A DNA stretch of 64,000 nucleotides from an uncultured Gammaproteobacteria bacterium (GCA_963722805.1 CAVROQ010000008.1:1160-65159), one strand, 5' to 3'; counted from the stretch's first letter, positions 1 to 19,849 are shown. Notes: generated by a model not told the origin, from the sequence alone. Made by a program: numbers and translations.

Positions 1-898
1 TCCCGAGCAGGCCGTGACGGTGAAAGAAGAACCGGGGCAGAGCGTTCGCATCCAGCGAGTCGTCAATACCGGGACCGGCGAGGTGGAGCTCTACTGTCAC
101 TCGCAGGCCCGCGAATTAAAAGAACAGGCCATGCAGGATCAATCTGGCAAACGTTTTGAAGCTGCCCTGCAGGGCCTCCATGAAGGGCTATCCAAAAAGG
201 GTACCACCAAGCGCTATGACAAAATCCTGGAGCGCATCGGGCGATTGAAAGAAAAGTACCGCCGTGTGGCTCAACACTACACCATCCGGGTTGAGCACGA
301 TGATGCCAACAATAAAGCCACCGCGATCCACTGGGAACGTTCAGAAAAACCCCACTCCCAGGCGACGCACCCCGGCGTCTATTGCCTGCGCACTAACCTC
401 GTCGACTGGGATGAAACCGCGTTATGGAACACCTACACCATGCTGACCGATCTGGAGGCCGTTTTCCGTAGCCTCAAGAGCGAACTGGGGATGCGCCCCA
501 ACTTCCACCAGAAGGAAGCCCGTATCGAAGGACATCTGTTCATTACCTTGCTGGCCTATCACCTGGTGCATACGATCCGCACCCAACTGAAGTCTCAAGG
601 CATTCACGATAGCTGGGAGACGATACGCCGCAAGCTGGAAAACCAGCAGCGGATCACGGTAAGCCTCAAGCGAGAGGATGGTAAAACCGTTCACGTCCGC
701 AAAACGACCCGCGCGGAACCCCACCAGAAAGCGATATACGATGCCCTGGGCATTTCTGCCAGACCGGGGAATGTCGAAAAAACCATCATCTGATGCCAAG
801 CCACAAAAAAACAAATATGTAATGCCATAACGGACTTGATCCGAAAGCTATCTATTTGTTTTTTATCATATTGTTGTCAGTGAAATCGAAAGATGGGT
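1..898 (+). mobile_element. Right-hand part of an IS4/IS1634-family insertion sequence. The left part lies outside the window and the right boundary is approximate.
   Basis: The transposase ORF runs in from the window edge. Homology of the neighbouring integrase pseudogene stops abruptly near 899-902, which suggests the IS end sits there. The terminal IR was not verified because the other end is not in the window. Confidence 0.45.
2..793 (+). CDS. IS4/IS1634-family DDE transposase, C-terminal ~263 aa (5' end outside window)
   Basis: The frame is open from base 2. The C-terminal region (YTMLTDLEAVFRSLKSELGMRPNFHQKEARIEGHLFITLLAYHL) resembles the Y-R-E-K region of IS4-type DDE transposases. 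Confidence 0.7.
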   Translation, partial: PEQAVTVKEEPGQSVRIQRVVNTGTGEVELYCHSQARELKEQAMQDQSGKRFEAALQGLHEGLSKKGTTKRYDKILERIGRLKEKYRRVAQHYTIRVEHDDANNKATAIHWERSEKPHSQATHPGVYCLRTNLVDWDETALWNTYTMLTDLEAVFRSLKSELGMRPNFHQKEARIEGHLFITLLAYHLVHTIRTQLKSQGIHDSWETIRRKLENQQRITVSLKREDGKTVHVRKTTRAEPHQKAIYDALGISARPGNVEKTII

Positions 899-2100
899 TA
901 GTGCCAGCGTACGCAGTGCCTCGAGATCAACCTTGGTATAAATCATTGTGGTCTGCGGATGGCGATGACCCAAAACATCACCGATTTCTCCCAGCGAGGC
1001 GCCTTGGCGCAACATCTCGGTGGCCAGTCCATGCCGAAACTGATGTGCTCCGTACGTCGGCGCCTTGATGCCAGCGCGCTTGAGCGAATGACGGACGATT
1101 GATCCAACGCCACTGGCACCTCGAAAGCCGCGGATAGGGGCCTTGGCGCGCAGAAAGACGCGTCGATTGGTGCTGGGTGGTCGTCCATCCGCAATACGCG
1201 ACTATCGCCTTACCAACCTCAAGAGGTAGGGAAACTCGTTGCGCAGGCCGCTCTTACCGCGCACCTCAACGTGCCGGCATTCCAGTCGATGTCCTCGAGT
1301 AAGAAATGCCACTTCACTCGAACGTAAGCCCAGTCGTGCAAGCAGCAGTAAAATGGCATAGTCGCGACGTCCTATCGCAGTTTGTGGATTGATGCTCACC
1401 AACAGCTGATGGACTTGATCCGTCGGAATTGCCCGGGGGATCGATGACATCGACCAGTTGGCTACCGTAGGAACGGCAGCGGCCAGATCCAGCGTCACCT
1501 CACCGCGATAACGGGCGTACTTCAGGAAAGAGCGCAATGCAGTGGTCATGACGCTCGCTGCCTGTGTAAACGCGGCGCCTGGCGCTGTACAAATCGCCAC
1601 GACATCACGGGCACACAAGCGTGAGAGCGTCACGGGTCCGTCTCCCAAACGATTGTTAAGAAAACTACGGATGAACGGTACATAGTTGACAATCGTGGCT
1701 TTGGTCAATTGCGTACCTCGCGCAGGTGTTGCTCATACGCCTGCGTACAGCACTCCGCCGGGGTTACTCGTCCTACTGATAGCTTCTCGGTGGGAACCAA
1801 GCCCTCAGCGCGTAAGAAGTCAATGAGATACCTGAGTGCGGCAGCATCTCCCAGGCAAGGATGTACCCGCCTGCGCGATATCGTAAATACTGTCTCGAAT
1901 GATCGGAGGTAATGCGGTGTAGTTCGACTCCCTCTTGCTTAAGCCACCGACTAAAGCTCGCGGCGAGACGAACCTGCGGAGAATTGAATTCGGCGCATAT
2001 CCCTGGGCGCTGACGAATCCTGTAGACGAGCGATATGAGCCACGAGAGGACCTTCTGGTACTTGCGACAGAACTACTTGGCTATTGATAACATACTTCAT
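899..2100 (-). pseudogene. Degraded tyrosine recombinase (phage-integrase family) with multiple frameshifts and a clipped 3' end
   Basis: Integrase-like sequence is spread over three frames. The N-terminus, from the ATG at 2100, reads MKYVINSQVVLSQVPEGPLVAHI. ORF 1202..1708 carries RRDYAILLLLARLGLRSSEV. A third frame, about 902-1050, reads HQFRHGLATEMLRQGASLGEIGDVLGHRHPQTTMIYTKVDLEALRTLA (the H-x-x-R and H..Y catalytic region). Confidence 0.75.
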
Positions 2101-2228
2101 GATGGACTCCTCCCCGTAAGCGGGGCTGATGGAGGGATTCCGGACTATATCGTTATAGCTACGCTCTTTTACCGAGAAAATCAGGGTGACGTGGCGTTAC
2201 AAGACATAGTCAAGAAGGGTACATGGAC

Positions 2229-2257
2229 CAATATCCCGAGCCGGAATTTATCTTGAG
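2229..2257. repeat. RIT terminal inverted repeat, left copy (29 bp perfect, extendable to 31 bp)
   Basis: Read directly: caatatcccgagccggaatttatcttgag is the reverse complement of 5743-5771. Confidence 0.95.
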
Positions 2258-2347
2258 CAGCCGGTCGGTATGTTCTCCAACTCCATAGGACCGCCTGTAA
2301 TTCATGGATAAATGTTGATCTGATCTAGGTTTCTGGCTTTGGTTTAA

Positions 2348-2357
2348 TCCAGATAAA
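2348..2357. repeat. RIT subterminal 10-bp repeat (tccagataaa), inverted partner at 5685-5694
   Basis: tccagataaa at 2348-2357 and tttatctgga at 5685-5694 are reverse complements. The left copy continues as agataaatccggct, which resembles the core of the terminal IR (agataaattccggct). Confidence 0.5.
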
Positions 2358-2366
2358 TCCGGCTTA

Positions 2367-3383
2367 CTATAGGGATTCTAAGAACGCCAACAAGTTCGGT
2401 TTGGGCTCCCAGCTTGAACCACGCCGGGGAGTCAGACCGGATCGTTCCCAGAAGGCCTCCAGTGCATCGCGCTTCATTTGGAGATTCGTCGTAATATAAC
2501 GGCTGGTGGTGGCGATGCTCGCATGGCCGAGATAATCCCGGATTACGGTGACGTCAACACCTGCTTGCAAAAGCGCAACGGCACAACTATGCCGCAAACA
2601 ATGCGGCGTGATATGCCGACGATGCAAGGCGGGTGCCTGGCGAGCTGCCGCGGCCACGTGCTTGTTCAAAATATAGGCAATACCATCGCGCGTGATCGGT
2701 TGGCCGTTCCGGTTGTGGAAGATTGGATCATTTCGACCTCCATCACGCACGCTGGGCAGCCGCTGCAAGGCATCGACAGTCTCACGCCACAAGGGACAGT
2801 GGCGGACTTTATTGCCCTTTCCCTGAAGACGGACGTGAGTTGGCTTGATCAGGCACAGATCTTGAACACGAACGGCAATTGCTTCACTGACCCGTGCGCC
2901 GGTGTTATATAGAAAGAGCAGTAATACGTGGTCTCGACGCCCGAAAATAGTGCGGCAATCGGGTTGTCGCAGGATCAACCGGATATCTTCGGGTTCAAGG
3001 TAGTGCGCGGGGGATGTGCGTGTCCGCTTTGAAGGAATCGCCAGTACACGGTGATACTGATTTGCACGCGAGAGATCTTGGCGAATCAGGTGCCTGAAGA
3101 AGCTGCGAACTGCGGTGAGTCGATAATTGCGGGTGGCGGCGGAGTTGACTCGCTCATTCTCGAGGTACACTAAGAATGCTTTGATAGCTTCGACGTTCAG
3201 ATCATCTGGCTGAAGGTCACTGATGGCACATCCCAATCGATCGGCTAGGAAGCGGAAGAGAAGTTTCAAGGTATCACGATAGGCCCGAACGGTGTGGTGA
3301 CTGGCACCGCAGTGGCGCTCCATATGGTCCTCGAAGAATGACTGTACCAGAGGCAGCAGCTCTGGTGATTTAGAACGAGCCAT
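2367..3383 (-). CDS. Tyrosine recombinase, third gene of the trio (RitC-like), ~338 aa
   Basis: Signature NTGARVSEAIAVRVQDL, HCLRHSCAVALL, LGHASIATTSRYI. The ATG at 3383 shares one base with the upstream TGA. Confidence 0.85.
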   Translation of the reverse strand: MARSKSPELLPLVQSFFEDHMERHCGASHHTVRAYRDTLKLLFRFLADRLGCAISDLQPDDLNVEAIKAFLVYLENERVNSAATRNYRLTAVRSFFRHLIRQDLSRANQYHRVLAIPSKRTRTSPAHYLEPEDIRLILRQPDCRTIFGRRDHVLLLFLYNTGARVSEAIAVRVQDLCLIKPTHVRLQGKGNKVRHCPLWRETVDALQRLPSVRDGGRNDPIFHNRNGQPITRDGIAYILNKHVAAAARQAPALHRRHITPHCLRHSCAVALLQAGVDVTVIRDYLGHASIATTSRYITTNLQMKRDALEAFWERSGLTPRRGSSWEPKPNLLAFLESL

Positions 3384-4360
3384 CAACTCGAGCCCCTTTG
3401 ATAGACCCGATGTGCGAACCGGTCACTTGCCAGCTGCAGCAACTCGGGTGTGGCGTGCAGGTAAACTTCCGTACCGAGTACGTTGACATGCCCCATGTAG
3501 GCCGATAGCCAGGGCAGCTGCGAGTGAACATCAACACCACCGTGATACCAGTCGGTGAGGCGGTGAACGGCATACGCATGTCGAAAGTCATATGGCCGCG
3601 GTCCCCTTCGGCCCCGTGCGGGCTTTAACCCCAGCTTGCGCAGGAGTAGTCTGACCGCTTCGGATGCCGATTTGACTGTCAATGGCGTTCCATCCCGACG
3701 GATGAAAAATGCGTCGCTCTCGGAGCAATCCGTCGCACTCTCTATGTGGGCTCGTTCCTCCATATAGGCCTCCATTTGTTCTGCAAGGTCGGCACCAAAC
3801 GGTACGAACCGAGTCCTGCCCTTGCTCGCGCGGATCAGAAACAGGGCCTGACTAAGATCCACATCTGCAATGCGCAGTCGTACCGCCTCGCCGAAGCGGA
3901 GCCCGGTGCAGTACAGAATCAGAATCAGCGTGTGGAGCATTCTTGACCAGATATTGCGTCCTTGATGTGCCCTGGCTGCTGTCAGAAGTTGATGAACCTC
4001 CTCTTGCGAGAAGATATATGGAAAATAGCTGGACTCTGACTGTGGTGCCAAAGCATGATCCGGAACAAAGGAGTCGGGGTCACGGCGTTGCCGATAAAGG
4101 CAAAGCTGGCGCACGACCCCCAAGTAGAGCGAGGCAGTGACTGCTTTGCGACCATCGACGCAGGAAAGCCAGGCGTTGATAGTCGGTTCGAGCTCGATCA
4201 CCGCGCATTTTGATCCGTCGTTACCAACGTAACGCTCGGCAAACCGTTGAAAATTACATAATGTGGCCTCGCTACGTTGATACGTATAACCCAAGGCGCG
4301 TTTGAACTCGAGGAATTCCGCAATATCACGTGACAGTTCTTCCGGCGTAATCCTGGTCAT
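3383..4360 (-). CDS. Tyrosine recombinase, second gene of the trio (RitB-like), ~325 aa
   Basis: Signature CTGLRFGEAVRLRIADVD, YDFRHAYAVHRL, MGHVNVLGTEVYLH. Start re-called to the ATG at 4360 (MTRITPEEL), which overlaps the upstream stop as ATGA. The 404-aa track ORF is an over-extension. Confidence 0.85.
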   Translation of the reverse strand: MTRITPEELSRDIAEFLEFKRALGYTYQRSEATLCNFQRFAERYVGNDGSKCAVIELEPTINAWLSCVDGRKAVTASLYLGVVRQLCLYRQRRDPDSFVPDHALAPQSESSYFPYIFSQEEVHQLLTAARAHQGRNIWSRMLHTLILILYCTGLRFGEAVRLRIADVDLSQALFLIRASKGRTRFVPFGADLAEQMEAYMEERAHIESATDCSESDAFFIRRDGTPLTVKSASEAVRLLLRKLGLKPARGRRGPRPYDFRHAYAVHRLTDWYHGGVDVHSQLPWLSAYMGHVNVLGTEVYLHATPELLQLASDRFAHRVYQRGSS

Positions 4361-5580
4361 GCCGGCGGTACCGGTAATGCCAGATGCCGCAGGCTCTCTG
4401 TTGCTACGCGCAGGTAGGCCGAGGTCGATTCCGGGTTCCGATGGCCCAGGATATCGCCAATGAGTTTCGGTTGGATGCCGAGTTCCATCTGCCGGCAGGC
4501 TTGAGTATGGCGCAACACATGAGTACCGAGGTAGGTAGCAGTCACGCCGGCACGTTGTGCATGGGTGTGGAGGATGTGCCTGATTGTGACCGAGCAAGCT
4601 AACTGCTTATGTGGAGCTCTCATGGTGATGAACAAATGCCGGCTCTGGGCATGCGGTGGCCGGCCATGCTGCAAATAATCGGCTAAGGCCCGTGCGATAG
4701 CGGGCAATAGAGGAAGGATGAAATCGGAACCTGTCTTTGGGCGCACCACGTGGAGAGTGCCAGCCTTCCAGTCAATGTCATCGAGCGTCAGTTGAATCGC
4801 TTCACCAGATCCCAATCCATAAGTGCTCATCATCAGCAGCAATGCGTAATCGCGTTTTCCACACGGGGTACGGCGATTGACAGCCCGCAATATACGTTGC
4901 ACGTCCTCCCAGGCAATCGTTCTATGTGGGCGTTCATGAGGGCGCGTTTTGGGTGCCATGATCGACGATGAAAAATCAGCTGGCAGGCGCTCGGTCATAT
5001 ACAGAAACCGGACAAATACGCGCAAGGTCGAGCAAATATCAGCGACAGTGGCACGAGCATAGCGCCTACGGAGAACAATCACGAACTCATCGATATCCGG
5101 CAAGCGAGGTTGATGCAGCTTGTGGCCTCGTTCATTAACAAACTTCTTGAACCGAATAACGTGTTGGATCTTCTTATGAATCGTGATTTCCGGGTTGCCG
5201 CGCTCGAGGCGCAGATGCTCTGAAAACTCGCATATCAAAGGTGATGGCGATGGCAATGCTTTCTTTGCGGGAGCCCAGAGAGGCAACGACTCATTCAGCG
5301 TTTGCAGTGCCGTTGCCCAAGCATAGAGCGCGCTGCGTGCACTCTCGAATACCGTGTTGAAATCGATGTGACGCGACCGGGCGTACCACTTGGAGAATTT
5401 GTGAACCCCAACCAGGGAAAGCTGTTCTCTCTCGTCAAGCTGCTTCTCGCAACAGTACGTCGCGAATCGTAGTATCCACAGCCGATAAACGTTGATCGAA
5501 CTACGCTTAAGACATCGATTCTGACGCCATACCTCGGTTACTTCCGCGAATCGATGATTGAATTGTCGGTGTGCAGGCAT
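4357..5580 (-). CDS. Tyrosine recombinase, first gene of the trio (RitA-like), ~407 aa
   Basis: Catalytic signature: YGLGSGEAIQLTLDDID (box I Arg region), HVLRHTQACRQM (H-x-x-R) and LGHRNPESTSAYLR (H..Y). Start taken as the ATG at 5580, since the ORF-track start at 5583 is GTG. Confidence 0.85.
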   Translation of the reverse strand: MPAHRQFNHRFAEVTEVWRQNRCLKRSSINVYRLWILRFATYCCEKQLDEREQLSLVGVHKFSKWYARSRHIDFNTVFESARSALYAWATALQTLNESLPLWAPAKKALPSPSPLICEFSEHLRLERGNPEITIHKKIQHVIRFKKFVNERGHKLHQPRLPDIDEFVIVLRRRYARATVADICSTLRVFVRFLYMTERLPADFSSSIMAPKTRPHERPHRTIAWEDVQRILRAVNRRTPCGKRDYALLLMMSTYGLGSGEAIQLTLDDIDWKAGTLHVVRPKTGSDFILPLLPAIARALADYLQHGRPPHAQSRHLFITMRAPHKQLACSVTIRHILHTHAQRAGVTATYLGTHVLRHTQACRQMELGIQPKLIGDILGHRNPESTSAYLRVATESLRHLALPVPPA

Positions 5581-5742
5581 CACTCGGTCGCCCCCGCCAG
5601 AGATTACAAGCTCCTATGCAACTACTTCGTCTCTGAGGGTGAAAAAGTTACAACATATATGCAAGGCAGTATTTGACGACCAGTTTTATCTGGACAATCC
5701 ATTACGGTAAATCACGCTTTTGGCAGTTCCTAATTGCCTTTG

Positions 5743-5771
5743 CTCAAGATAAATTCCGGCTCGGGATATTG
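5743..5771. repeat. RIT terminal inverted repeat, right copy
   Basis: Read directly: ctcaagataaattccggctcgggatattg is the reverse complement of 2229-2257. Confidence 0.95.
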
Positions 5772-6122
5772 CAGAGCTTTTTAGCGGAGCGATCGCAGGC
5801 CCAGCGGTGGTGGAGGCGAGATACTTTGACTGCGATCGGTTAGTTAAATTGATTGGACTGACGCGGGTGGTTGGCCTGCTATGGGGTTGATCACACAGGT
5901 AGGGCTAGCGGTCTGAGGTGTCGGGTGCGAGACGACGTATCGGGGATTTTGAGTCGCTGCCAGTGATGAACTGGACATTTTTTGATCGACAAGCGCCGTG
6001 CCTGGTCCGGGCTAAGCCAGTGGGGAGTGGAGAAAGGCCTCTGGGGAAATGGGGGGCGAGGTGAATCGACGCACCGGTCGGGGGGCGGGGTAGCACTTAC
6101 CTGTAATGCCTGCGCTGCACTG

Positions 6123-7316
6123 CTATGAGGTATCGATAAAAGCTGGACGCATGGGGCGCAGAAAGGTAGCGACAACGTGCATCTGGCCATTTTCCAAGTG
6201 TGGACACTGACGCAACGAATGGCCGGTGAGCTTTTCGAACAGATCCCGGTAATCGAGAGACTGTGCGGTTTCTGTTGGTACCGGCTTGCTATTGAGAAGC
6301 GTGCGGCACAGGGCGAGTTTTCGAGCGCGGACGCGGTTACCGAGAAATCCGTAATGGCGAATCCGCTGGAGCCTGCTGGGCAGCACATGCAGCAGGAAAC
6401 GGCGGATGAACTCATCGGCACTGAGTGTCATGGTCTTGGGCTGGTTGTGATGCCGGTAATCCTTCCAGCGAAAGGCGACTTGACCGTCATCGGCGCTGAC
6501 CAAGCGATGATTGGCAATAGCCACGCGATGAGTATAACGGCCCAGGTACTCCAGGACCTGCTCGGGGCCACCGAAGGGAGGCTTGGCATAGACGACCCAG
6601 TCGGCGTTGCGCAGCGGCGCGAGGTACTTGGCAAAGGCCTGCGACTCGCGCAGTGCCTCGAGCGTCGAGAAGAACTGGAGTTCGTTCGCCTCGTAGGTTC
6701 GCTGCAGGGCGTTTAGAAAAATTCGCCGAAAGAGTCTTGACAGTACGCGCACGGGGAGAAAGAAGCCAGGCCGACAGGAGACCCAACGCTGCTGATCCGG
6801 CGACGGGCCACCACCAGGGACAATACAGTGTAGATGCGGATGATGGGTGAGATTCTGCCCCCAGGTATGCAATACGGCAATGAGGCCAATATCGGCGCCG
6901 AGGTGCTTTGGATCGGCCGCGATCGTACGCAAGGTCTCCGCTGTCGCGCGAAACAACAGATTGTAGACCACACGCTTATTCTGCAATGCGATGGCAGCGA
7001 TGAGCTTGGGTAGTGTGAACACCACGTGGAAATATTCAGCCTCCAACAATTCCGCACGGCGATCATCAAGCCACTGCGCCCGAGCGAGCGATTGACATTT
7101 TGGACAGTGTCTATTGCGACACGAGTTGTACGCATTGCGCTGATGGGCACAGTGATCGCACTGCTCCAAGTGGCCGCCAAGTGCGCTCGTTCGACACTTT
7201 TCGATGGCACTCATGACCCGAAATTGCTCGCGATGCAAGTTTGGGCCATGGGCATGGCGAAAGTCGCTGCCGTGGCGGTGGAAAATGTCGGCGACCTCCA
7301 GGGCCGGCCTGAGCAT
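6123..7316 (-). CDS. IS91-family HUH (Y2) transposase, ~397 aa
   Basis: Zinc-binding region CDHCAHQRNAYNSCRNRHCPKC, HUH motif HHPHLHCIVPGGG, and tyrosine pair YLGRYTHRVAI. Start re-called to the ATG at 7316 (MLRPALEV). Confidence 0.85.
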   Translation of the reverse strand: MLRPALEVADIFHRHGSDFRHAHGPNLHREQFRVMSAIEKCRTSALGGHLEQCDHCAHQRNAYNSCRNRHCPKCQSLARAQWLDDRRAELLEAEYFHVVFTLPKLIAAIALQNKRVVYNLLFRATAETLRTIAADPKHLGADIGLIAVLHTWGQNLTHHPHLHCIVPGGGPSPDQQRWVSCRPGFFLPVRVLSRLFRRIFLNALQRTYEANELQFFSTLEALRESQAFAKYLAPLRNADWVVYAKPPFGGPEQVLEYLGRYTHRVAIANHRLVSADDGQVAFRWKDYRHHNQPKTMTLSADEFIRRFLLHVLPSRLQRIRHYGFLGNRVRARKLALCRTLLNSKPVPTETAQSLDYRDLFEKLTGHSLRQCPHLENGQMHVVATFLRPMRPAFIDTS

Positions 7317-7326
7317 CGCAGGAGAC

Positions 7327-8095
7327 TCAAAAGTACTGAGGTGGAGTGTCCTTGGGTGTCGGGGACGGTGGGCAACACAGCAGATCAAAAGGGCTCGTTG
7401 TTGCGCAGACCTGCGTGGTGGCCAGTTTCAGGTACCGGGCCGTAGTCGAGAGGCTTCGATGGCCCAGCAGAAGCTGAATGGTGCGCAGTTCCGTACCGCT
7501 CTCCAGAAGGTGTGTGGCAAAAGCGTGGCGCAGACTATGTGGGGTTACGGGCTTTTTGAGGCCGGAGCGCGCGTGCGCTTTACGACAGGCCAACCCCACC
7601 GCATCTCGACTGATTGGCTGATCAAGATGAGGGCTGGAAAACAGCCAAACGGTGGAAGGGCGTGCTTCTTTCCAATACTGGCGCAAGATCTCCAACAACC
7701 GGGGAGAAAGCAGGCTGTAACGGTCCTTTCTCCCCTTACCCTGGTCCACGCGCACTGTCATCCGGTCGCTGTCAATATCGGTGACTTTCAGCTGGCAGGC
7801 CTCGGAGATGCGCAGCCCCGTTGCGTATAAAGTACTCATAATAGCGCGGTGCTTGAGGTTGGGTGCGCCTCAAGAAAGCACTTGACTTCATCGCGACTGA
7901 GGATCACCGGCAAGGTTTGGGGCTTTCTTGGCGCCGGAATTTCATCAATCGACCAAGGCTGCTTGAGTGTCACTTTGTAGAGAAATCGTAGCGCCGACAC
8001 AGTGATACAAAGGCTGCTCGGCGCCAATTTTTTCACCTTGATCAAATGGAGTTGATAGGTGCGAATCTGCTCGGGACCAAGCTCTTCAGGGGATT
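7327..8095 (-). pseudogene. Tyrosine recombinase associated with the IS91-family transposase; frameshifted and N-terminally truncated
   Basis: The C-terminal ORF 7327..7839 carries LYATGLRISEA, HSLRHAFATHLL and LGHRSLSTTARYL. The N-terminal SAM-like domain lies in another frame (up to about 8095). The frames join if CCAACC near 7858-7862 is read as CCAAACC (HP-NLKHRAII). About 40-50 N-terminal residues are missing. Confidence 0.75.
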
Positions 8096-8212
8096 CCGAA
8101 AGAATCGGGCGAAGCAGAAACTGCAAAGATAAGGCTGGGTACGAAGAGCGAAGCAGAAGGGTGAGAGAGGTGAGGGAGAGGGAGGGAGAGGAGGAGAAGA
8201 TTGGTCGAAGCA
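8096..8212. repeat. Filler between two truncated mobile elements: a polypurine tract (about 8143-8200) with three copies of CGAAGCAG
   Basis: Read directly: the tract is gaagcagaagggtgagagaggtgagggagagggagggagaggaggagaaga, and cgaagcag occurs at about 8108, 8148 and 8205. No coding similarity was recognised in any frame. Confidence 0.6.
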
Positions 8213-9247
8213 GCCAATCCGGGTGATACCCGCTGCCTGGCACACCTGGCTGTAGCCGGAATAGCCATCGGCCTGCAATACACCACCAAATCCATCCAGC
8301 AGGCGTTCTGCCACCGCGCCGGCACGTGAAGGGTCGTATTCAAACAGGACTGCCGGCTTATCCGGGGGGCCACCGCGTATCACCCACATCCATTTATCGG
8401 ATTGGGCTGTTTTACCGGTTTCCTTCAGCACTTGCAGGCGTGTCTCATCGGCCTGCAGGTAATTCCCCTCCAGCTGAACTTCCCGCATCAAATTGATCAG
8501 GGGCTGGAATACACCCTGGAGCCGTATGATCCAGTGGGCCATATTGGCACGGCTGATATCACCACCGTAACGCTTGAGCATGCCCTCAAGACGATACAGC
8601 GGCAGTCCATCGGCGTATTTGGAGGCAATGATGTAGGCCAGTAATGTGGTGCTGGCGAAGCACTTCCCCAGGGGGTGGGCCGGGCGCCGTGCGGCAACAA
8701 TGATTTCTTCGCCATCGGTATTGAAGATCGCTTTCTCCTGCCAGTATTCCAGCACCTTGAGCTGGGCGGGAATAAACTCCAGCTCTTCCTTGACCTTGGT
8801 AAAGAAGGTCTTGGTCGCGCCCTCTTTTTCCTCATCGCTCAGGGTGATCTGTATCTGCACCCGCAGAAGCTTGTCGCTAAACCCGCGCTTTCTTTTCTTC
8901 TTTTGCGGCCGAACTCGATCCTCTTCCGGCAGTTGCGCTTCGAGCTCACCCAGGGCGACTTCGATTTCAGCCTCATCGAAAAAATCAGACTGGAACGCCA
9001 GCTTCTCACTACTGGCGCCGAATTTCCGTACGGTGGCCAGGCGCAAGTATTCTTCGAGCAGGTTGATTCGTTTCGCCTGCGCAAGAATAACGTCAGCCTT
9101 GTCGTCGAGATGTTTTTGGTGGGCCTGAAGAAGTTCGTGTTTTTCCTCAAGAAGTTGGTCTTTCTCGGCGAGAGCAGCAATCAGTTCCGAGGCGTCGAGC
9201 CCCTCGTAACGGCCTTGTTTTTGTTGCTTTTTTATCGCTGATTGCAT
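8213..9247 (-). pseudogene. tnpC: IS66-family transposase TnpC, C-terminally truncated
   Basis: N-terminal coiled-coil region and central region present (...YIIASKYADGLPLYRLEGMLKRYGGDISRANMAHW...YLQADETRLQVL...QADGYSGY...). Homology ends at RIGC and the frame then reads through the polypurine filler. Confidence 0.8.
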
Positions 9248-9281
9248 GGCGTCATTGTAACATTCACACTTGGAAAAAGCC

Positions 9282-9650
9282 TTAAAATACAGACTCATAA
9301 TGCAATTTCTTATGGCCGTTCATTAGTGAAATATCATACCCTTCGAGCAACCAGTTGATCTGTTGCCCGGTCAGTGAAACCACCTCTTCACCACGGCGTG
9401 GCCAGCGGAATTTCTCTTCGGCCAGGGCCTTGTAGTAGAGTACAAAGCCATTATCTTCCCAGTACAGGCACTTGATCTTGTTGCGACGCCGGTTGGTGAA
9501 AGCGTACAAGCCGCCGTCGAAAGGATTGTGGCCAATTTCCCGTTCGACAATGGCTGCCAGACCGGTGCTGGCTTTCCTGAAATCTACCGGGTCCCGGTAC
9601 AGGTAGATCCGCGGCATGTCGTCGGCAGGACGGAAGTAGCGGACAGTCAC
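9282..9650 (-). CDS. tnpB: IS66-family Orf2 protein TnpB
   Basis: 122 aa. The sequence IYLYRDPVDFRKASTGLAAIV...NRRRNKIKCLYWEDNGFVLYYKALAEEKFRWP is characteristic of IS66 Orf2. Confidence 0.85.
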   Translation of the reverse strand: MTVRYFRPADDMPRIYLYRDPVDFRKASTGLAAIVEREIGHNPFDGGLYAFTNRRRNKIKCLYWEDNGFVLYYKALAEEKFRWPRRGEEVVSLTGQQINWLLEGYDISLMNGHKKLHYESVF

Positions 9651-9967
9651 AGGTGCTCCAGTAACTGGCGCACGACCAGGATGTTGTCGGAGCGAATACC
9701 GCGTAGCACCAGTCCATTGGGCAAGGACAGTGTCAGCCCGTTATTGACGTCAGGGCGATAATCGAGAGTGGCGAAACCGCCACTCTCGCGCTCTGCCTGG
9801 TCACCACCCGGGCCACGCTCAAACTTACGGCGCCAATACACAAACCGGTGATAGGTCAGATCATTGGCCTGGCAAAACTTTGGCTGCGACAGGCCCGAAT
9901 CCTTCCACTGGTCAATGTGCTGTTGCCAGTACGCCGCCAAATCTGTCGGGGTTGCTGGATCGCTCAT
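9647..9967 (-). CDS. tnpA: IS66-family accessory protein TnpA
   Basis: 106 aa, first gene of the IS66 module (..LSQPKFCQANDLTYHRFVYWRRKF..). Its stop overlaps the tnpB start. Confidence 0.8.
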   Translation of the reverse strand: MSDPATPTDLAAYWQQHIDQWKDSGLSQPKFCQANDLTYHRFVYWRRKFERGPGGDQAERESGGFATLDYRPDVNNGLTLSLPNGLVLRGIRSDNILVVRQLLEHL

Positions 9968-10075
9968 GGCTCTCTCCTGTTTTTTGATCGTCAGGAGTAA
10001 AGCATGATCAGGGTTGGGTTGAAAAAACAGGTGCAGTTTTAAAAGCGCTTACGTTACTTGCGTATTCCGGCCCAT

Positions 10076-10230
10076 CGTGAACACCCATTCTGGTTTAACG
10101 TGAACACCCATTCTGGTTTAACGTGAACACCTATTCTGGTCGAACGTGAACACCCATTCCGGGTTGAACGTGAACACTTTTCGGGTATTTTCCGGAATGG
10201 GTGTTCACCATCCCGGAATCACTGTTCACG
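10076..10230. repeat. IS21 left-end repeat array: five tandem ~23-bp direct repeats (cgtgaacacccattctggtttaa and variants) followed by two inverted copies
   Basis: Read directly: direct units start at 10076, 10099, 10122, 10145 and 10169. Inverted ggtgttcac / ctgttcacg copies lie at about 10199-10230. Matching ggtgttcacgttc units occur twice at the right end (about 12648-12683). Confidence 0.85.
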
Positions 10231-10303
10231 TTAAACCGGAATCCCTCTCAACGCATTGATCTTTAAACGGTTTGGTAAGCTCCCCGGCTTTTTGGGAGCG
10301 ACC

Positions 10304-11845
10304 ATGTCAGGCAAGAGAATCGCAATGCGCAAAATACGAGACGTACTCAGGCTTCGGTTATCCGCCGGCCTGTCCATCCGCGAGATCAGCCGCAGCACCA
10401 AGCTCAGTGTGGGCGGCATCCAGAAGCTGCTCAGCCGGGCCCAAGCCCTGGATCTGGGCTGGCCCCTAGCCGATAACCTGGATGACAATCGACTGGCACA
10501 GCTGTTCTATCCCAGTGCCGATACCCGCACCTCCCGCCGCTACCAGATGCCGGATTGGTCAGTCATCCACCAGGAACTCAAGCGGCCCCACATGACCAAG
10601 CAGTTGCTGTGGGAGGAGTACACCCAGCAATACCCCAATCGCTGTTACAGCTACTCCCAGTTCTGCGAGCGCTTCCGGCGATGGCAGGGCAAACAGAAGC
10701 GCTCCATGCGCCAGCACCACCGGGCCGGCGAGAAGTGCTTTGTGGATTACGGCGGTTCAACCGTGCCGATCATCAATGCCATGACCGGCGAGATCCGCGA
10801 GGCACAGATCTTTGTCGCCACCTTGGGCGCTTCCAACTACACCTTCGCTGAGGCGACCTGGTCTCAGTCGCTCCCCGACTGGCTGGGAAGCCATGTGCGG
10901 ATGCTGGAATTTTATGGCGGCTGTACCGACATGGTCGTCCCCGACAATCTACGCAGCGGTGTCAGCAAGGCCTGTCGCTACGACCCGGACCTCAATCCCA
11001 GTTATCAACAATGGGCCGAACACTACCTGGTCGCCGTGGTCCCGGCGCGGCCCTACAAACCCAAAGACAAAGCCAAGGCAGAGAATGCGGTTTTGGTCGT
11101 CCAGCGCTGGATTCTGGCCCGCCTGCGCCACCACAGCTTCTTCTCCCTGGCGGAGCTGAACCAGTGTATTCGCGCCTTGCTTGAGGACCTCAACAACCGC
11201 CCCTTCAAACAACTGCCCGGCTGCCGCCGCTCGGCGTTTGAGCAGTTGGATAAGCCGGCCCTGAAGCCGCTACCCACCCAGCCCTACCGCTACGTGGCCA
11301 TCAAGCCGGTCAAGGTCAACATCGACTACCACGTCCAGTACAAGGACCACAGCTACTCGGTGCCCCACCAATACGTCGGGGAACGGCTGGAACTGCACGC
11401 CAGTGAAACCCTGGTGGAAGTCTACTTCCGGCGGCAGCTGGTGGCCACGCACCCGCGCAAACACACGCCGGGGTTTACCACCAACCCGGCCCACATGCCC
11501 AAACGCCACCAGGCACAGCAGCAATGGACACCCGGGCGACTGAAGCGTTGGGCCGGCGACATCGGTCCGGATACCGGAGCCTGGGTCAGCGACCAGTTCG
11601 AGCGCCGGGAACACCCGGAGCAGGCCTACAGGGTCTGTCTGGGCCTGCTGAACCTGAGCAAGCAATACCCGGCCACCCGGCTCAATGCCGCCTGCCGCAT
11701 CGCCAACCAGGCTTCCCTGATGCGCCTGAAGCAGGTCAGGGCCATCCTGATGAGCAATCGGGACCAGTTGCCCGAACAACTCAGCCTCGCGGCTGAACTT
11801 CCCCAAGACCACGAGAATATCCGCGGTCCACACAACTTCCACTGA
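10304..11845 (+). CDS. istA: IS21-family transposase IstA, ~513 aa
   Basis: N-terminal HTH (MRKIRDVLRLRLSAGLSIREISRSTKLS) and a DDE core. Start re-called to the ATG at 10304, preceded by gggag. Confidence 0.9.
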   Translation: MSGKRIAMRKIRDVLRLRLSAGLSIREISRSTKLSVGGIQKLLSRAQALDLGWPLADNLDDNRLAQLFYPSADTRTSRRYQMPDWSVIHQELKRPHMTKQLLWEEYTQQYPNRCYSYSQFCERFRRWQGKQKRSMRQHHRAGEKCFVDYGGSTVPIINAMTGEIREAQIFVATLGASNYTFAEATWSQSLPDWLGSHVRMLEFYGGCTDMVVPDNLRSGVSKACRYDPDLNPSYQQWAEHYLVAVVPARPYKPKDKAKAENAVLVVQRWILARLRHHSFFSLAELNQCIRALLEDLNNRPFKQLPGCRRSAFEQLDKPALKPLPTQPYRYVAIKPVKVNIDYHVQYKDHSYSVPHQYVGERLELHASETLVEVYFRRQLVATHPRKHTPGFTTNPAHMPKRHQAQQQWTPGRLKRWAGDIGPDTGAWVSDQFERREHPEQAYRVCLGLLNLSKQYPATRLNAACRIANQASLMRLKQVRAILMSNRDQLPEQLSLAAELPQDHENIRGPHNFH

Positions 11846-11856
11846 AGGAGATACCC

Positions 11857-12615
11857 ATGACAACAGCCATCACACTCGCCCGCCTGCGCGACCTTCGCCT
11901 CGGCGGTATGGCCGATGCACTGGCGCGGCAACTGGAACAGATCGGCACCTACGATGCCCTTCCATTCCTGGAACGGCTTGGCCTGCTGGTTGAGCAGGAA
12001 TGCCTGGAGCGTGAGCACCGCAAGCAGGAGCGGCTAGTGCGCCAGGCACGCTTCAAGCTGCGCGCCACGGTGCAGGACATTGACTACCAGCACCCGCGCA
12101 ACATTCAGAAGGCACAGATCGCCCGGCTGGCACAAGGTGAGTGGATCGACCGTGCCCAGAACCTGCTGATCACTGGCCCCTGTGGGAGTGGCAAGACTTA
12201 CCTGGCCTGCGCGGTGGGTCACAACGCCTGCTTGCAGGGTTATAGCGCGCGTTACTACCGGTTGTCGCGAATGTTGCTGGAATTGACCCAGGCCAAGGCA
12301 GATGGAAGCTATCAAAAGCTGATGGCCCAGATAGCCAAGACGCAAATACTCCTGGTCGACGATTGGGGGCTGGAGAAACTCAACACCGCCCAACGCAATG
12401 ATCTGATGGAGATCATGGACGACCGTCACGGATCAACATCGACGGTGATGATCAGCCAGTTGCCGACGGACCAATGGTACGCCGCCATCGGGGATAACAC
12501 CTTGGCGGATGCCATCCTGGACCGACTGATGCACAACGCACACCGGCTCCCGCTGAAGGGTGAATCGATGAGAAAAATACGGGGGGAATTGACTGAAGGT
12601 GAACACTTGGAGTAA
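11857..12615 (+). CDS. istB: IS21-family helper ATPase IstB
   Basis: Walker A GPCGSGKTYLA, Walker B ILLVDDWG, and a typical IstB length of 252 aa. Confidence 0.9.
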   Translation: MTTAITLARLRDLRLGGMADALARQLEQIGTYDALPFLERLGLLVEQECLEREHRKQERLVRQARFKLRATVQDIDYQHPRNIQKAQIARLAQGEWIDRAQNLLITGPCGSGKTYLACAVGHNACLQGYSARYYRLSRMLLELTQAKADGSYQKLMAQIAKTQILLVDDWGLEKLNTAQRNDLMEIMDDRHGSTSTVMISQLPTDQWYAAIGDNTLADAILDRLMHNAHRLPLKGESMRKIRGELTEGEHLE

Positions 12616-18353: not shown

Positions 18354-19849
18354 TTAATTAGTCGACCCTGAAAAAGCCTAACTGGTCATCACTACATGAC
18401 TGTGATGGGTCGGTTTGATAAAAAGTCCCGTTATGCCGCTCCAGAAGGAAGCCATTTTCGGGGGCAATAAAAACAATCTCATCCATTTCCTAAAGTTGAA
18501 CGCAGCCGCAGCCATCAGTACGTTGATCTGGTCGCCTTCAAATCCTTTAAGATAACTTCTGTTGAGTCGGTGATCTGACTTCAGGTGACCAATCACCGGC
18601 TCAATACCGGCTCGCTTTCGAAATCGTTTCCGCATCAGTGCCTTGTAGGCACCGTTGTTATTCCGGGTGGTTGTACTGGGCCTTATGATCCGCGTGTCAT
18701 TGATCTTACTCTTCCCTTTGTAGCCTCTGTCACATATGCCAACGGCCGGTTTTAGCGCAGTGAGACGCTTTAATTGCAGAAGCACCTCCGGCAAGGTATG
18801 CCCATCAAATTTGTTGGTATCAAAGGCCATAGCACCGACAATGATTTTGGAATCCCGTGTTGTCGCGATAGAAACTTTAGTGCCAAATTCATAGCGCTTA
18901 TGTTCCTTGCCTTTGCTCATGCAGTAAACATGAGGTTCGTGCAGGCTGTACAGCTTGTGCTTATCTCCTCGCTTTTGGTTCAGTCCACGATGGAATAGTG
19001 CGAAGTCCTCTGCCAGATTTTCCAGAATGTCGAGTGGCAGTTTACGCTCTAATTCCCGAACTAAACGACCGGCAATGGTCTTTAGCCGTTTAACGGCTTT
19101 GCGGGCCTTGGCGCGATTCCTGGGGTGTCCTGCAAAACGACATTCCAGCTTTCTTTGTTTGATTTCCTTCGCGTAACTGCGACGAAGTTTTATGTTTTCC
19201 TTCCTGGCCAGTTTCAGGCAATAAACAATAATCTTTCGATACAACTTTGCATCGGTGGGAAAGGTGACATTTTTTTCCTGTACTGTGGTGTCAATACAGA
19301 CTTCCTCTTCGATGGCCTTCTCGCCGTGAATGGTGATGGAGGATGCCAGTATTTTCTCAAATCCTTTCTCACCCACTCGCTTGCGGAAGTACACCAGATC
19401 GGAAGGGTCACAGGGAAATGACCATTGGAATTCGACCTCTCCACAGAACGCCTGGTAATACGGATTCTGTACCCAGTGCCGCACGACAACCTCGTCGCTA
19501 ACGTTTTCCATGTGCTTGAGAATAGACAAGCCCACCATCAAACGTATAGGTTTGGCGGGCCTTCCAATCGGCGCATACAAGGGCGCAAACTCTGACTCAA
19601 AAAAGTCCCAGGGTATGGTTCGTGCAAGCTGTAACAGAGGGTGCTTCGGATTGAGTTGATCCATTAATCCGGCGGCCATAAAACTCATTTGATGGTGATC
19701 GGGGGAAGAATCTTTCATCGAATAGCCACCTCTATTTCGACCAGATTTAGTGTGAAATACGCGTGAAACTGGTTGAAATTATCTCACATATTCCTGGATT
19801 TACATATAGTATTCAATGGGTTATGAGTTTTTCAGGGTCAACTAATTAA
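18354..19849 (-). mobile_element. IS5-family insertion sequence
   Basis: 22-bp IR with one mismatch: ttaattagtcgaccctgaaaaa at 18354-18375 and tttttcagggtcaactaattaa at 19828-19849. The outer TTAA could be either a target duplication or part of the IR. Confidence 0.85.
18378..19718 (-). CDS. IS5-family DDE transposase
   Basis: InsH-like N-terminus (LNPKHPLLQLARTIPWDFFESEFAPLYAPIGRPAKPIRLMVGLSILKHMENVSDEVVV..NPYYQAFCG) and a DDE core with a C-terminal ..IEPVIGHLKSDHRLNRSYLKG.. motif. Confidence 0.85.
   Translation of the reverse strand: MKDSSPDHHQMSFMAAGLMDQLNPKHPLLQLARTIPWDFFESEFAPLYAPIGRPAKPIRLMVGLSILKHMENVSDEVVVRHWVQNPYYQAFCGEVEFQWSFPCDPSDLVYFRKRVGEKGFEKILASSITIHGEKAIEEEVCIDTTVQEKNVTFPTDAKLYRKIIVYCLKLARKENIKLRRSYAKEIKQRKLECRFAGHPRNRAKARKAVKRLKTIAGRLVRELERKLPLDILENLAEDFALFHRGLNQKRGDKHKLYSLHEPHVYCMSKGKEHKRYEFGTKVSIATTRDSKIIVGAMAFDTNKFDGHTLPEVLLQLKRLTALKPAVGICDRGYKGKSKINDTRIIRPSTTTRNNNGAYKALMRKRFRKRAGIEPVIGHLKSDHRLNRSYLKGFEGDQINVLMAAAAFNFRKWMRLFLLPPKMASFWSGITGLFIKPTHHSHVVMTS

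Follow-up and report, generated by a model that had tools for sequence, protein, structure and literature searches.

Recombinase-in-trio (RIT) elements are defined by three adjacent, overlapping tyrosine-recombinase genes of distinct families, ritA, ritB and ritC, in about 3.5 kb of DNA whose ends have an inverted repeat of about 28-34 bp and a palindrome (PMC3414803; PMC10214605, Table 1 note). The repeat lengths given in the literature are '34 bp' and '28-9 bp' (PMC10214605, PMC3414803), and the published overlaps between the open reading frames (ORFs) are of 4-8 bp, typically ATGA. The RitA proteins have two sequential core-binding domains and the RitC proteins an additional C-terminal helix (PMC8138268). 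Plasmid pHG1 of C. necator H16 has been named as RIT-rich (PMC3414803), a ritABC trio is known from pSHV1 of S. herbicidovorans MH (PMC5737581), and both a palindromic sequence at one RIT end and the interruption of one IS66 tnpA gene, in C. metallidurans CH34, are already on record (PMC2864759, PMC3414803). These elements are widespread, but their mechanism, sites and target specificity are listed as 'not tested' (PMC10214605). Here we describe a stretch of 64,000 nucleotides (hereafter the window) from an uncultured Gammaproteobacteria bacterium (GCA_963722805.1, CAVROQ010000008.1:1160-65159), in which positions 2229-5771 hold a cargo-free RIT element with complete genes and terminal repeats. 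Members of its clade, as comparison of their junctions shows, are inserted at one specific codon of the IS66 transposase gene tnpC.

Six annotated plasmid trios, among them those of pHG1 and pSHV1, were used as references. In BLASTP comparisons the window proteins matched the genes at the same position of the trios with 133-423 bits (A against gene 1), 129-346 bits (B against gene 2) and 164-410 bits (C against gene 3), whereas the cross-position pairs gave only 20-66 bits, and the gene order ritA-ritB-ritC on one strand was the same in all six. Homologous terminal repeats flank homologous trios in Marinobacter, Rhizobium, Mesorhizobium, Sphingobium, Cupriavidus and many metagenome contigs (compare CAATATCCCGAGCCGGAATTTATCTTGAGCA of the window with CAGTATCCCGAGTACCGTTTTATG of Cupriavidus P-10 and CATTATCCAGAGCATGGTTTTATCTGGGG of Sphingobium). 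Because the proteins sort by position into three subfamilies and homologous trios carry homologous repeats, the element is a RIT. An earlier sequence-only reading of the window had staked the same call on exactly these two points, the three distinct subfamilies and the recurrence of the repeat at the ends of homologous trios, and both went its way.

The trios of CH34 (ritA1B1C1), pHG1 and S. herbicidovorans (Van Houdt 2009/2012; Nielsen 2017) share with the window the overlapping A-B-C order, the subfamilies proper to each gene, the size of about 3.5 kb, the lack of cargo and repeats of about 30 bp, and have a palindrome nearby. The window RitA is, however, just 31-35% identical to those of pHG1 and S. 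herbicidovorans, the overlap between ritB and ritC is of 1 nt (below the published range of 4-8), and RitB has a tyrosine in place of the first histidine of the H-x-x-R motif. The closest annotated relative is the RIT of plasmid pMAQU02 of Marinobacter nauticus VT8 (WP_011783476/75/74), whose RitA, RitB and RitC are 56, 54 and 62% identical to those of the window and whose repeat, CATTATCCCGAGTCGGTTTTTATCTGGAGTA, is homologous to the window repeat. RIT elements, their gene order, subfamilies and repeats of about 30 bp have already been published, and the window element is in itself ordinary for a specialist.

IS66 insertion sites and the adjoining palindrome

Metagenome contigs were scanned with a RitA alignment, which gave 80 loci, and all loci (designated by L and a number) were searched by tblastn with the intact IS66 TnpC of A. 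vitis (521 aa, with the motif A333-C-M-A-H337-V-R-R-K). As the clade of the window we took the loci whose RitA is at least 39% identical to that of the window, among the metagenome loci L023-L043 (n=21). A piece of IS66 tnpC adjoins the element in 15 of these 21 loci against 0 of 58 from the more distant RitA clades (Fisher p = 1e-11). In 14 of the 15 this piece ends or begins at TnpC residues 329-346, mostly 336-338, and in L026 it stops at residue 297. The same break was found at plasmid loci of Marinobacter (pMAQU02, L001), R. leguminosarum (L002), Sphingobium (L004) and Cupriavidus (L007), and at the canonical position also in L008 and L018. The insertion point lies within a conserved tnpC motif, between the codons for Cys-(Trp/Met)-Ala and those for His-x-Arg-Arg.

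The structure of both junctions is uniform. Where the part of tnpC coding for the N terminus (N-part) meets the element, the native sequence reads ..TGC WGG GCN CAT/TATCC.GAG (the slash marking the junction), the CAT at the tip being the His codon. On the side of the C-terminal part (C-part), 0-3 nt separate the other repeat (..GGATAATG) from a palindrome of 20-28 bp, after which comes GCN CAY, and about 6 bp (GGCNCA) are present at both junctions. Intact IS66 relatives have the uninterrupted sequence without the palindrome, ..GCC TGC ATG GCG CAT GTG CGC CGC AAG.. in L021 and L022 and ..GCC TGC TGG GCT CAT TGG CGA.. in L104. When the whole stretch that starts with the tip and closes with the palindrome was removed in silico, the IS66 frame was open again and had C(W/M)AH.RR in 7/7 cases, for example as ORFs of 578 and 543 aa. 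Comparison of the loci thus places the insertions of the clade at one specific codon of IS66 tnpC.

The palindrome itself was seen at every one of the IS66 C-side junctions available (14/14), for example as GGCCTTATGTGGAGCTCCACATAAGGCC in pMAQU02 and CGCCTTATCTTGAGCGCAAGATAAGGCG in L018. It stands beside the ritA-side repeat in eight elements and beside the ritC-side repeat in six, on the IS66 C-side every time. Its arms resemble the repeat motif of the element and covary with it, GTATC (L007), TGGAGC (L036) and CCGAGC (L024) appearing in both. Since it is absent from intact IS66 and its arms follow the element's own repeats, the palindrome seems to belong to the element and not to IS66. A native feature of IS66 and a common excision footprint were also considered for it and rejected: intact IS66 copies lack it and, among the 40 matches listed of 144 to the C-part of L002, all but two records of the L002 type start at or after its last base.

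Some insertions depart from this simple arrangement. On the Vaf-108 plasmid of R. leguminosarum (L002), the IS66 N-part (1826-2842) is 99.6% identical to the IS66 copy of pRiA4 and the C-part (6980-7321) 99.7% identical to an intact IS66 of the sister strain Vaf10, and the RIT accordingly lies at a chimeric junction of two different IS66 elements. Two diverged N-parts in inverted orientation flank the RIT in L037 (21-165 and 4075-4219) and L040 (916-1436 and 4784-5304), with arms about 80% and about 95% identical respectively and no palindrome in either element. Because the arms differ in sequence, the double N-parts are not an assembly artefact. In L004 there is a real N-part on one side, just a 10-nt imitation of an N-part on the other, and no palindrome. 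Structures of all these kinds fit recombination between the internal core of an inserted element and a second IS66 site.

A second and unrelated site-specific insertion into IS66 transposase genes was observed along the way. A large-serine-recombinase element occupies one and the same tnpC codon, after ..ERA(L/M)RP(I/L), in two IS66 types (L002, 6957-7678; L022, 6450-6870; intact reference in L021), both insertions continuing as ..PESLCTP.LS.CKHWKRLRV.

The trio, its ends and near-identical copies

The three genes lie on the minus strand of the window. The first, ritA (5580..4357), codes for 407 aa counted from its ATG, ritB (4360..3383) for 325 aa and ritC (3383..2367) for 338 aa, all of them tyrosine recombinases that match PF00589 (Phage_integrase, Pfam) with E values of 4e-25, 2e-21 and 1e-30. 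The start of ritB overlaps the stop of ritA by 4 nt (4357-4360, TCAT on the plus strand and ATGA on the coding strand), and ritB and ritC overlap by 1 nt (3381-3385, CATCA and TGATG). The head-to-tail genes, their lengths and both overlaps had been read in this way from the sequence alone, and the ORFs and Pfam matches agree. The same reading had also given all three proteins the signature R..H-x-x-R..H..Y, which is right for two of them. RitA has R243, K282, H354-x-x-R357, H380 and Y389, invariant among the relatives compared, and RitC a complete set (R164, H261-x-x-R264, then ..LGH..RY). In RitB the residues R155, K180, R260, H291 and Y300 are invariant, but in the clade of the window a tyrosine replaces the first histidine of H-x-x-R (Y-D-F-R260, in the context P-Y-D-F-R-H).

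In RitA, PF00589 spans residues 224-394 and is preceded by PF02899 at 118-194 and by a weak PF13495 match at 20-79 (E 1e-4, under the gathering score). Residues 1-111 and 112-207 align with each other in a profile-profile comparison (hhalign, probability 84%, E 8e-6, 84 columns). By these matches RitA has two N-terminal core-binding (SAM-like) domains, as in RIT RitA proteins. RitC is matched by three SAM-like N-terminal models besides PF00589, and in the sequence alignment a tail of about 38 aa beyond the catalytic tyrosine, NLxMKRxALExFW...WKPKxxLLxFLxSL, is kept among RitC proteins. Inside 2229-5771 only the three recombinases are found, with no fourth gene, no cargo and no TnpC-like ORF, and a sigma-70 promoter scan upstream of ritA gave no signal above background.

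From repeat to repeat the element spans 3,543 bp. Its terminal inverted repeat, at 2229..2259 on the ritC side and 5741..5771 on the ritA side, is perfect, as the sequence-only reading had said, although it is 31 nt long and not 29. With up to three mismatches it has just these two matches in the 64 kb (expected 0, from 100 shuffles), and the exact repeat had no match in the metagenome contigs of JGI. The boundary at 5771 was confirmed by L008, where the flank diverges exactly there; there is no target duplication flanking 2229 and 5771. Each repeat is made of two direct motifs of about 15 nt, S1 (AATATCCCGAGCC) at the tip and S2 (ATTTATCTTGAGCA) inward, located at 2229-2242 and 2245-2259 on the ritC side and at 5758-5771 and 5741-5755 on the ritA side, and the motif TTATC..GAG, at offsets 3 and 20, recurs throughout the clade.

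A third motif, S3, is an inverted copy of the repeat motif. It lies 79 nt from the tip at the ritA end (5685..5694, CCAGATAA on the minus strand) and at offset 121 at the ritC end (2348..2357). The latter position is about 42 nt away from the clade norm of 79, and a degenerate copy (ATGGATAAA, 2304-2312) is found near the canonical offset (about 76). This inner inverted pair, whose likeness to the repeat core had been noticed earlier (TTTATCTGGA against TTTATCTTGA), holds up, and at 87% it reaches a length of 15 nt. In most ends of 16 related elements S3 (CCAGATAA or CCGGATAA) appears at offset 77-79, within subterminal surroundings that are otherwise diverged. Because its position is conserved while the surroundings are not, S1, S2 and S3 are likely to be recombinase-binding sites, which lends weight to the previous suggestion of several such sites per end.

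Near-identical copies give a glimpse of the recent history of the element. Its RitC recurs, unchanged in protein sequence, on 16 metagenome contigs whose DNA is 99.5-100% identical to the window element, and copies at this level of identity were found in differing contexts, namely the window, L008 (an IS66 fragment beside the ritA-side repeat), L009 (an IS66 N-part) and L018. The latter, the one true relative that a profile search of genome contigs with RitA retrieved, is contig_3838 of the Gammaproteobacteria metagenome-assembled genome MFD09779.bin.1.234, and carries the same RIT at 99.8% next to a different IS66 C-part. There the RIT (4142-10813) is truncated at its ritA end and pierced by elements of the IS110 and IS630 families and by a fragment of an IS66. 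Since copies 99.5-100% identical have different flanks, elements of the window type seem to have been mobile recently. The differences among copies amount to 13 synonymous and 8 nonsynonymous changes (4 of the 8 in the decayed L018 copy), or 5 and 0 in ritC, and the indels are all of 3 nt and in frame. This excess of synonymous changes, with indels that keep the frame, points to purifying selection on the rit genes. Logan contigs that end at 2230 and 5770 were also considered as proof of multiple copies and rejected, since a k=31 de Bruijn graph breaks at any perfect 31-nt inverted repeat.

The window copy and its surroundings

The copy in the window has intact genes and repeats but looks like a rearranged derivative, devoid of the palindrome and of the IS66 C-part; neither was found anywhere in the 64 kb. 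A remnant of an IS66 lies 2.4 kb away from the RIT, as an N-terminal part of an IS66-family tnpC on the minus strand (8207..9298) that ends ..ATT GGC TGC TTC GAC, followed by CAAT. The intact TnpC covers it in tblastn from residue 40 to 338 and stops there, the C-x-x codons matching residues 334-336, and the match to DDE_Tnp_IS66 breaks off at position 152 of the 284 in the profile. The end of this part is the exact insertion codon of the clade, and the RIT repeat opens with the same four bases, CAAT, that follow it.

Between the N-part and the RIT tip, and outside the RIT, there is a minus-strand unit of about 2.4 kb (5772..8206) that codes for an integrase and for a Y2 transposase of the IS91 family (Pfam matches to Y2_Tnp, Zn_Tnp_IS91 and Phage_integrase). 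It has CAAT on both sides and ends ..GCTCTG, after which the minus strand reads CAATATCCCGAG.., that is, the RIT. The integrase is frameshifted (7327-8243, with ORFs 7836-8243 and 7327-7839) and the Y2 transposase occupies 6123-7316. A Logan contig of 2,637 nt (L103) is 99% identical to this unit and has identical 30-nt ends, including ..GCTCTGCAAT, which suggests a circular or tandem form of the unit; its first 239 nt differ from the CT-rich 8142-8202 of the window. On plasmid pMLa of Mesorhizobium japonicum (L003, 1061-7455), a replicon unrelated to that of the window, a RIT likewise stands directly beside an integrase+IS91 pair.

On the ritC side the 12 nt that abut the tip (2217..2228, GGGTACATGGAC) mimic an IS66 N-side junction. 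They match that of L009 (GGTTGCATGGAC/CAATATCC) at 10/12 positions, the last seven (CATGGAC) being identical. Farther out, the flank in the window does not belong to IS66, and no ORF runs through it in that frame. Along these lines, the window copy can be understood as a disrupted canonical insertion, because the IS66 N-part ends at the canonical codon plus CAAT and the intervening unit is bounded by CAAT. The RIT would have entered the canonical IS66 site, beside the N-part now at 8207-9298; the integrase+IS91 unit would then have inserted at the tip of the RIT repeat (CAAT); and recombination at the other end would have swapped the palindrome and the IS66 C-part for the mimic of an N-junction.

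These observations bear on two claims of the sequence-only reading, that the element is complete and that it may still be active. Completeness stands for genes and terminal repeats, whereas the palindrome of canonical clade insertions is missing. Activity is plausible for the proteins, given the intact ORFs and the mostly synonymous variation in 99.5-100% identical copies elsewhere, but this copy may not excise. The proteins of the window copy may act in trans and the segment may invert, while canonical excision is doubtful because one of the sites that it would need is absent. The neighbours are decayed, as had been stated: the integrase is frameshifted, the IS66 tnpC is cut at 8207, the recombinase gene at 899-2100 is decayed and an IS1634-like transposase at 14-793 is truncated.

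The recombinase gene (899-2100, minus strand) has stops and frameshifts, is about 29% identical to RitA residues 131-402 and starts about 130 nt past the ritC-side repeat. The fragment at 14-793 (plus strand) is the C-terminal piece of an IS1634/IS4-like transposase, has no Pfam match and is 55% identical to a full-length ORF of 640 aa that adjoins the RIT in L018 (2131-4053). An IS21-type pair of istA (rve and Mu-transposase C domains) and istB occupies 10256-12615, and an IS5/DUF772 DDE transposase 18378-19718. The first 12.6 kb of the window are a dense nest of insertion sequences. From 12733 to 37825 there are polysaccharide or PEP-CTERM-like genes (O-antigen-ligase-like, glycosyltransferase, ATP-grasp, an 892-aa TPR protein, a GAF histidine kinase and a 753-aa DUF1631 protein), a set that indicates a chromosomal, probably proteobacterial context. 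A cyanobacterial origin, prompted by GCGATCGC motifs near the element, was rejected, there being only 2 HIP1 sites in the 64 kb.

Proposed movement of the element and comparison with known systems

A model that accommodates these features is that the mobile unit comprises repeat, genes, repeat and palindrome, and that it moves by conservative site-specific recombination and not by transposition of the DDE type. The attachment site attB would be a partly symmetric IS66 sequence around GGCGCA, attL would consist of an IS66 arm, the overlap and the repeat site S1, and attR of the right arm of the palindrome, the overlap and an IS66 arm. The product of attL x attR excision would be circular, and its joint, repeat - O' - palindrome - O - repeat, would form one long palindrome with two mirror-image cores, each with inverted TTATC..GAG arms of about 10 bp around a 6-bp overlap. 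Either core could recombine with the partly symmetric IS66 site, which under this proposal would account for genes that run either way while the palindrome keeps to the IS66 C-side. Inversion in situ between the N-side core and the internal core would likewise be expected.

Taken as a whole, the reading of 2229-5771 as a rearranged copy of a RIT that enters an IS66 site by site-specific recombination, with the palindrome in the mobile unit, seems to us probable. In its fuller form the clade would be a dedicated, site-specific parasite of IS66 tnpC with the DNA for C-(W/M)-A-H-x-R-R as attachment site; its unit would include the palindrome outside one repeat, excision would give the two mirror cores and allow insertion either way, and IS66 copies would be fused in the process, the window copy being one product. 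Towards this detailed version we lean only slightly. Several observations weigh against the overall reading. The movement of RIT elements is listed as 'not tested' (PMC10214605, Table 1), and no circle junction was seen in any of the data analysed. The RIT of pMLa in M. japonicum (L003) belongs to the same clade and has no IS66 at its insertion, and the elements between two inverted N-parts (L037, L040 and perhaps L009) need a secondary rearrangement. The history of the window copy is itself a reconstruction, as neither palindrome nor IS66 C-part is present there. In 7/12 insertions, among them those of one element in two IS66 hosts (TGGACC/GGTCCA in L008, TGCGCC/GGCGCA in L018), repeat and palindrome are separated by 6 nt that exactly mirror the 6 target-derived nt on the far side of the palindrome, a pattern not predicted by one crossover from a double-stranded circle. 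The orientation of the palindrome centre, taken as a way to tell integration in either orientation from inversion in situ, fits the former for L008/L018 and L023/L024 but not for L025 and L027, and so decides for neither.

The mirrored nucleotides leave room for a different route, in which the same element would move through a folded single strand or hairpin, like the CTX phage with XerCD or the integron attC sites, with one strand exchange and resolution by replication, or for hairpin-templated repair. Inverted repeats and palindrome would then pair within one strand to make up the recombination site. In favour of this are the length and perfection of the inverted repeats at the ends, and a predicted joint that forms a palindrome of about 90 nt. 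Hairpin-templated copying would explain why the palindrome extends into target-derived bases in 7/12 insertions. In the mobilome of S. herbicidovorans, moreover, exonuclease-protected RIT DNA was found with no detectable circle junctions, and hairpin intermediates were proposed (PMC5737581). The clean restoration of IS66 and the identity of about 6 bp on both sides are, on the other hand, classic features of double-strand att recombination, and we consider the hairpin route improbable. Somewhat less doubtful, but in our view still unlikely, is that the unit from repeat to repeat (2229-5771) is the whole transposon, the window copy a primary insertion at a look-alike target outside IS66, and the palindrome a by-product or optional accessory. 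The occurrence of the palindrome at all the IS66 C-side junctions seen, with arms that covary with the element repeats, argues against this view, as does the lack of a target duplication around 2229/5771. It does agree with the published definition of a RIT as three recombinases plus terminal repeats (PMC10214605) and with the intact repeats lacking a palindrome in the window, L004 and L003. The CATGGAC shared by the ritC-side flank of the window and the junction of L009 is what a target preference predicts; the other flank (..GCTCTG/CAAT), however, is the end of the integrase+IS91 unit, and the IS66 N-part 2.4 kb off, which stops at the canonical codon plus CAAT, fits a disrupted canonical insertion better.

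A resident module for inversion or resolution, be it an invertase-like switch or Xer-like dimer resolution, would not be mobile at all. In its favour, tyrosine recombinases can invert DNA between perfect inverted repeats, one and the same IS66 site is found with the genes in either orientation, and there are sub-threshold NCBIfam matches to XerC/XerD and to tyrosine-type invertases. These Xer and invertase scores are of 34-176 bits against cut-offs of 220-371, and the same 3.5-kb unit is found at 99.5-100% identity in different contexts and in at least one other genome, always interrupting the transposase gene of another element of which intact copies exist. The differing insertion contexts largely refute this explanation, which we regard as very improbable.

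Tracing the relatives of the window element under the preferred reading, site-specific insertion into IS66 with the palindrome as part of the unit, gives a target of about 30 bp in IS66 tnpC, left and right junctions, ends with three motifs and an extra palindromic site outside the published definitions. If true, these would be the first concrete attB, attL and attR, with a predicted attP, for RIT elements, and defined target and sites make the mechanism testable by a simple plasmid-based experiment. An element that inactivates the transposase of another and recombines IS66 copies is also a potential driver of rearrangement in regions rich in insertion sequences, such as the first 12 kb of the window. 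In a search of the literature for RIT together with IS66 just the CH34 genome paper was found, the main RIT survey (Ricker et al. 2013) lying outside that search. The literature searched did not yield the systematic, codon-exact use of IS66 as a target by a single clade, the inclusion of the palindrome in the unit, ends built of three motifs or the att-site model; these are probably, but not certainly, new, and Ricker et al. (2013) might hold part of them.

Within the RIT family, the archetype of CH34 likewise interrupts an IS66 tnpA (PMC2864759, PMC3414803, PMC10214605). The RIT of pMAQU02 lies in an IS66 tnpC at ..IGC MA/H.., with a perfect 28-bp palindrome ahead of HARRKF, and is a canonical insertion into a single IS66 on a conjugative plasmid, whereas the window copy is rearranged, without palindrome, and located on a metagenome contig of chromosomal appearance. 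Among other systems, Tn554 is also a tyrosine-recombinase transposon with strong target specificity, no target duplication and a 6-bp core carried over from the flank (PMC10214605). It differs in having two recombinases (TnpA and TnpB) plus an unrelated TnpC, resistance cargo and no terminal inverted repeats, where the window element has three recombinases and perfect repeats. GInt and SE elements, with three or four conserved integrase-like genes, resemble it in the joint action of several tyrosine recombinases and in site-specific integration (PMC5385486, PMC10214605), but they depend on a fourth conserved protein (GinD/Srap) and on a homologue of Tfp/GinC, their cargo amounts to tens of kb and their ends are without inverted repeats. 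The GmtY model of the gamma-mobile-trio elements scored 16-27 bits with the window proteins, against a cut-off of 340 (NCBIfam).

A last comparison is with XerC/XerD and the elements that exploit dif (IMEX, CTX phage). The Rit proteins are likewise 'simple' Xer-like recombinases with a SAM-like core-binding domain, the proposed core likewise has inverted arms of about 10 bp around a 6-bp overlap, and in the CTX phage inverted sites are folded from a single strand. With the XerC/XerD models of NCBIfam RitA, RitB and RitC scored 120.5, 101.7 and 176.1 bits (cut-offs 329.6-335), and with the integron-integrase and invertase models, too, the scores fell far short of the curated cut-offs. In contrast to the elements that exploit dif, a RIT brings three recombinases of its own, and its target is not dif but a transposase gene.

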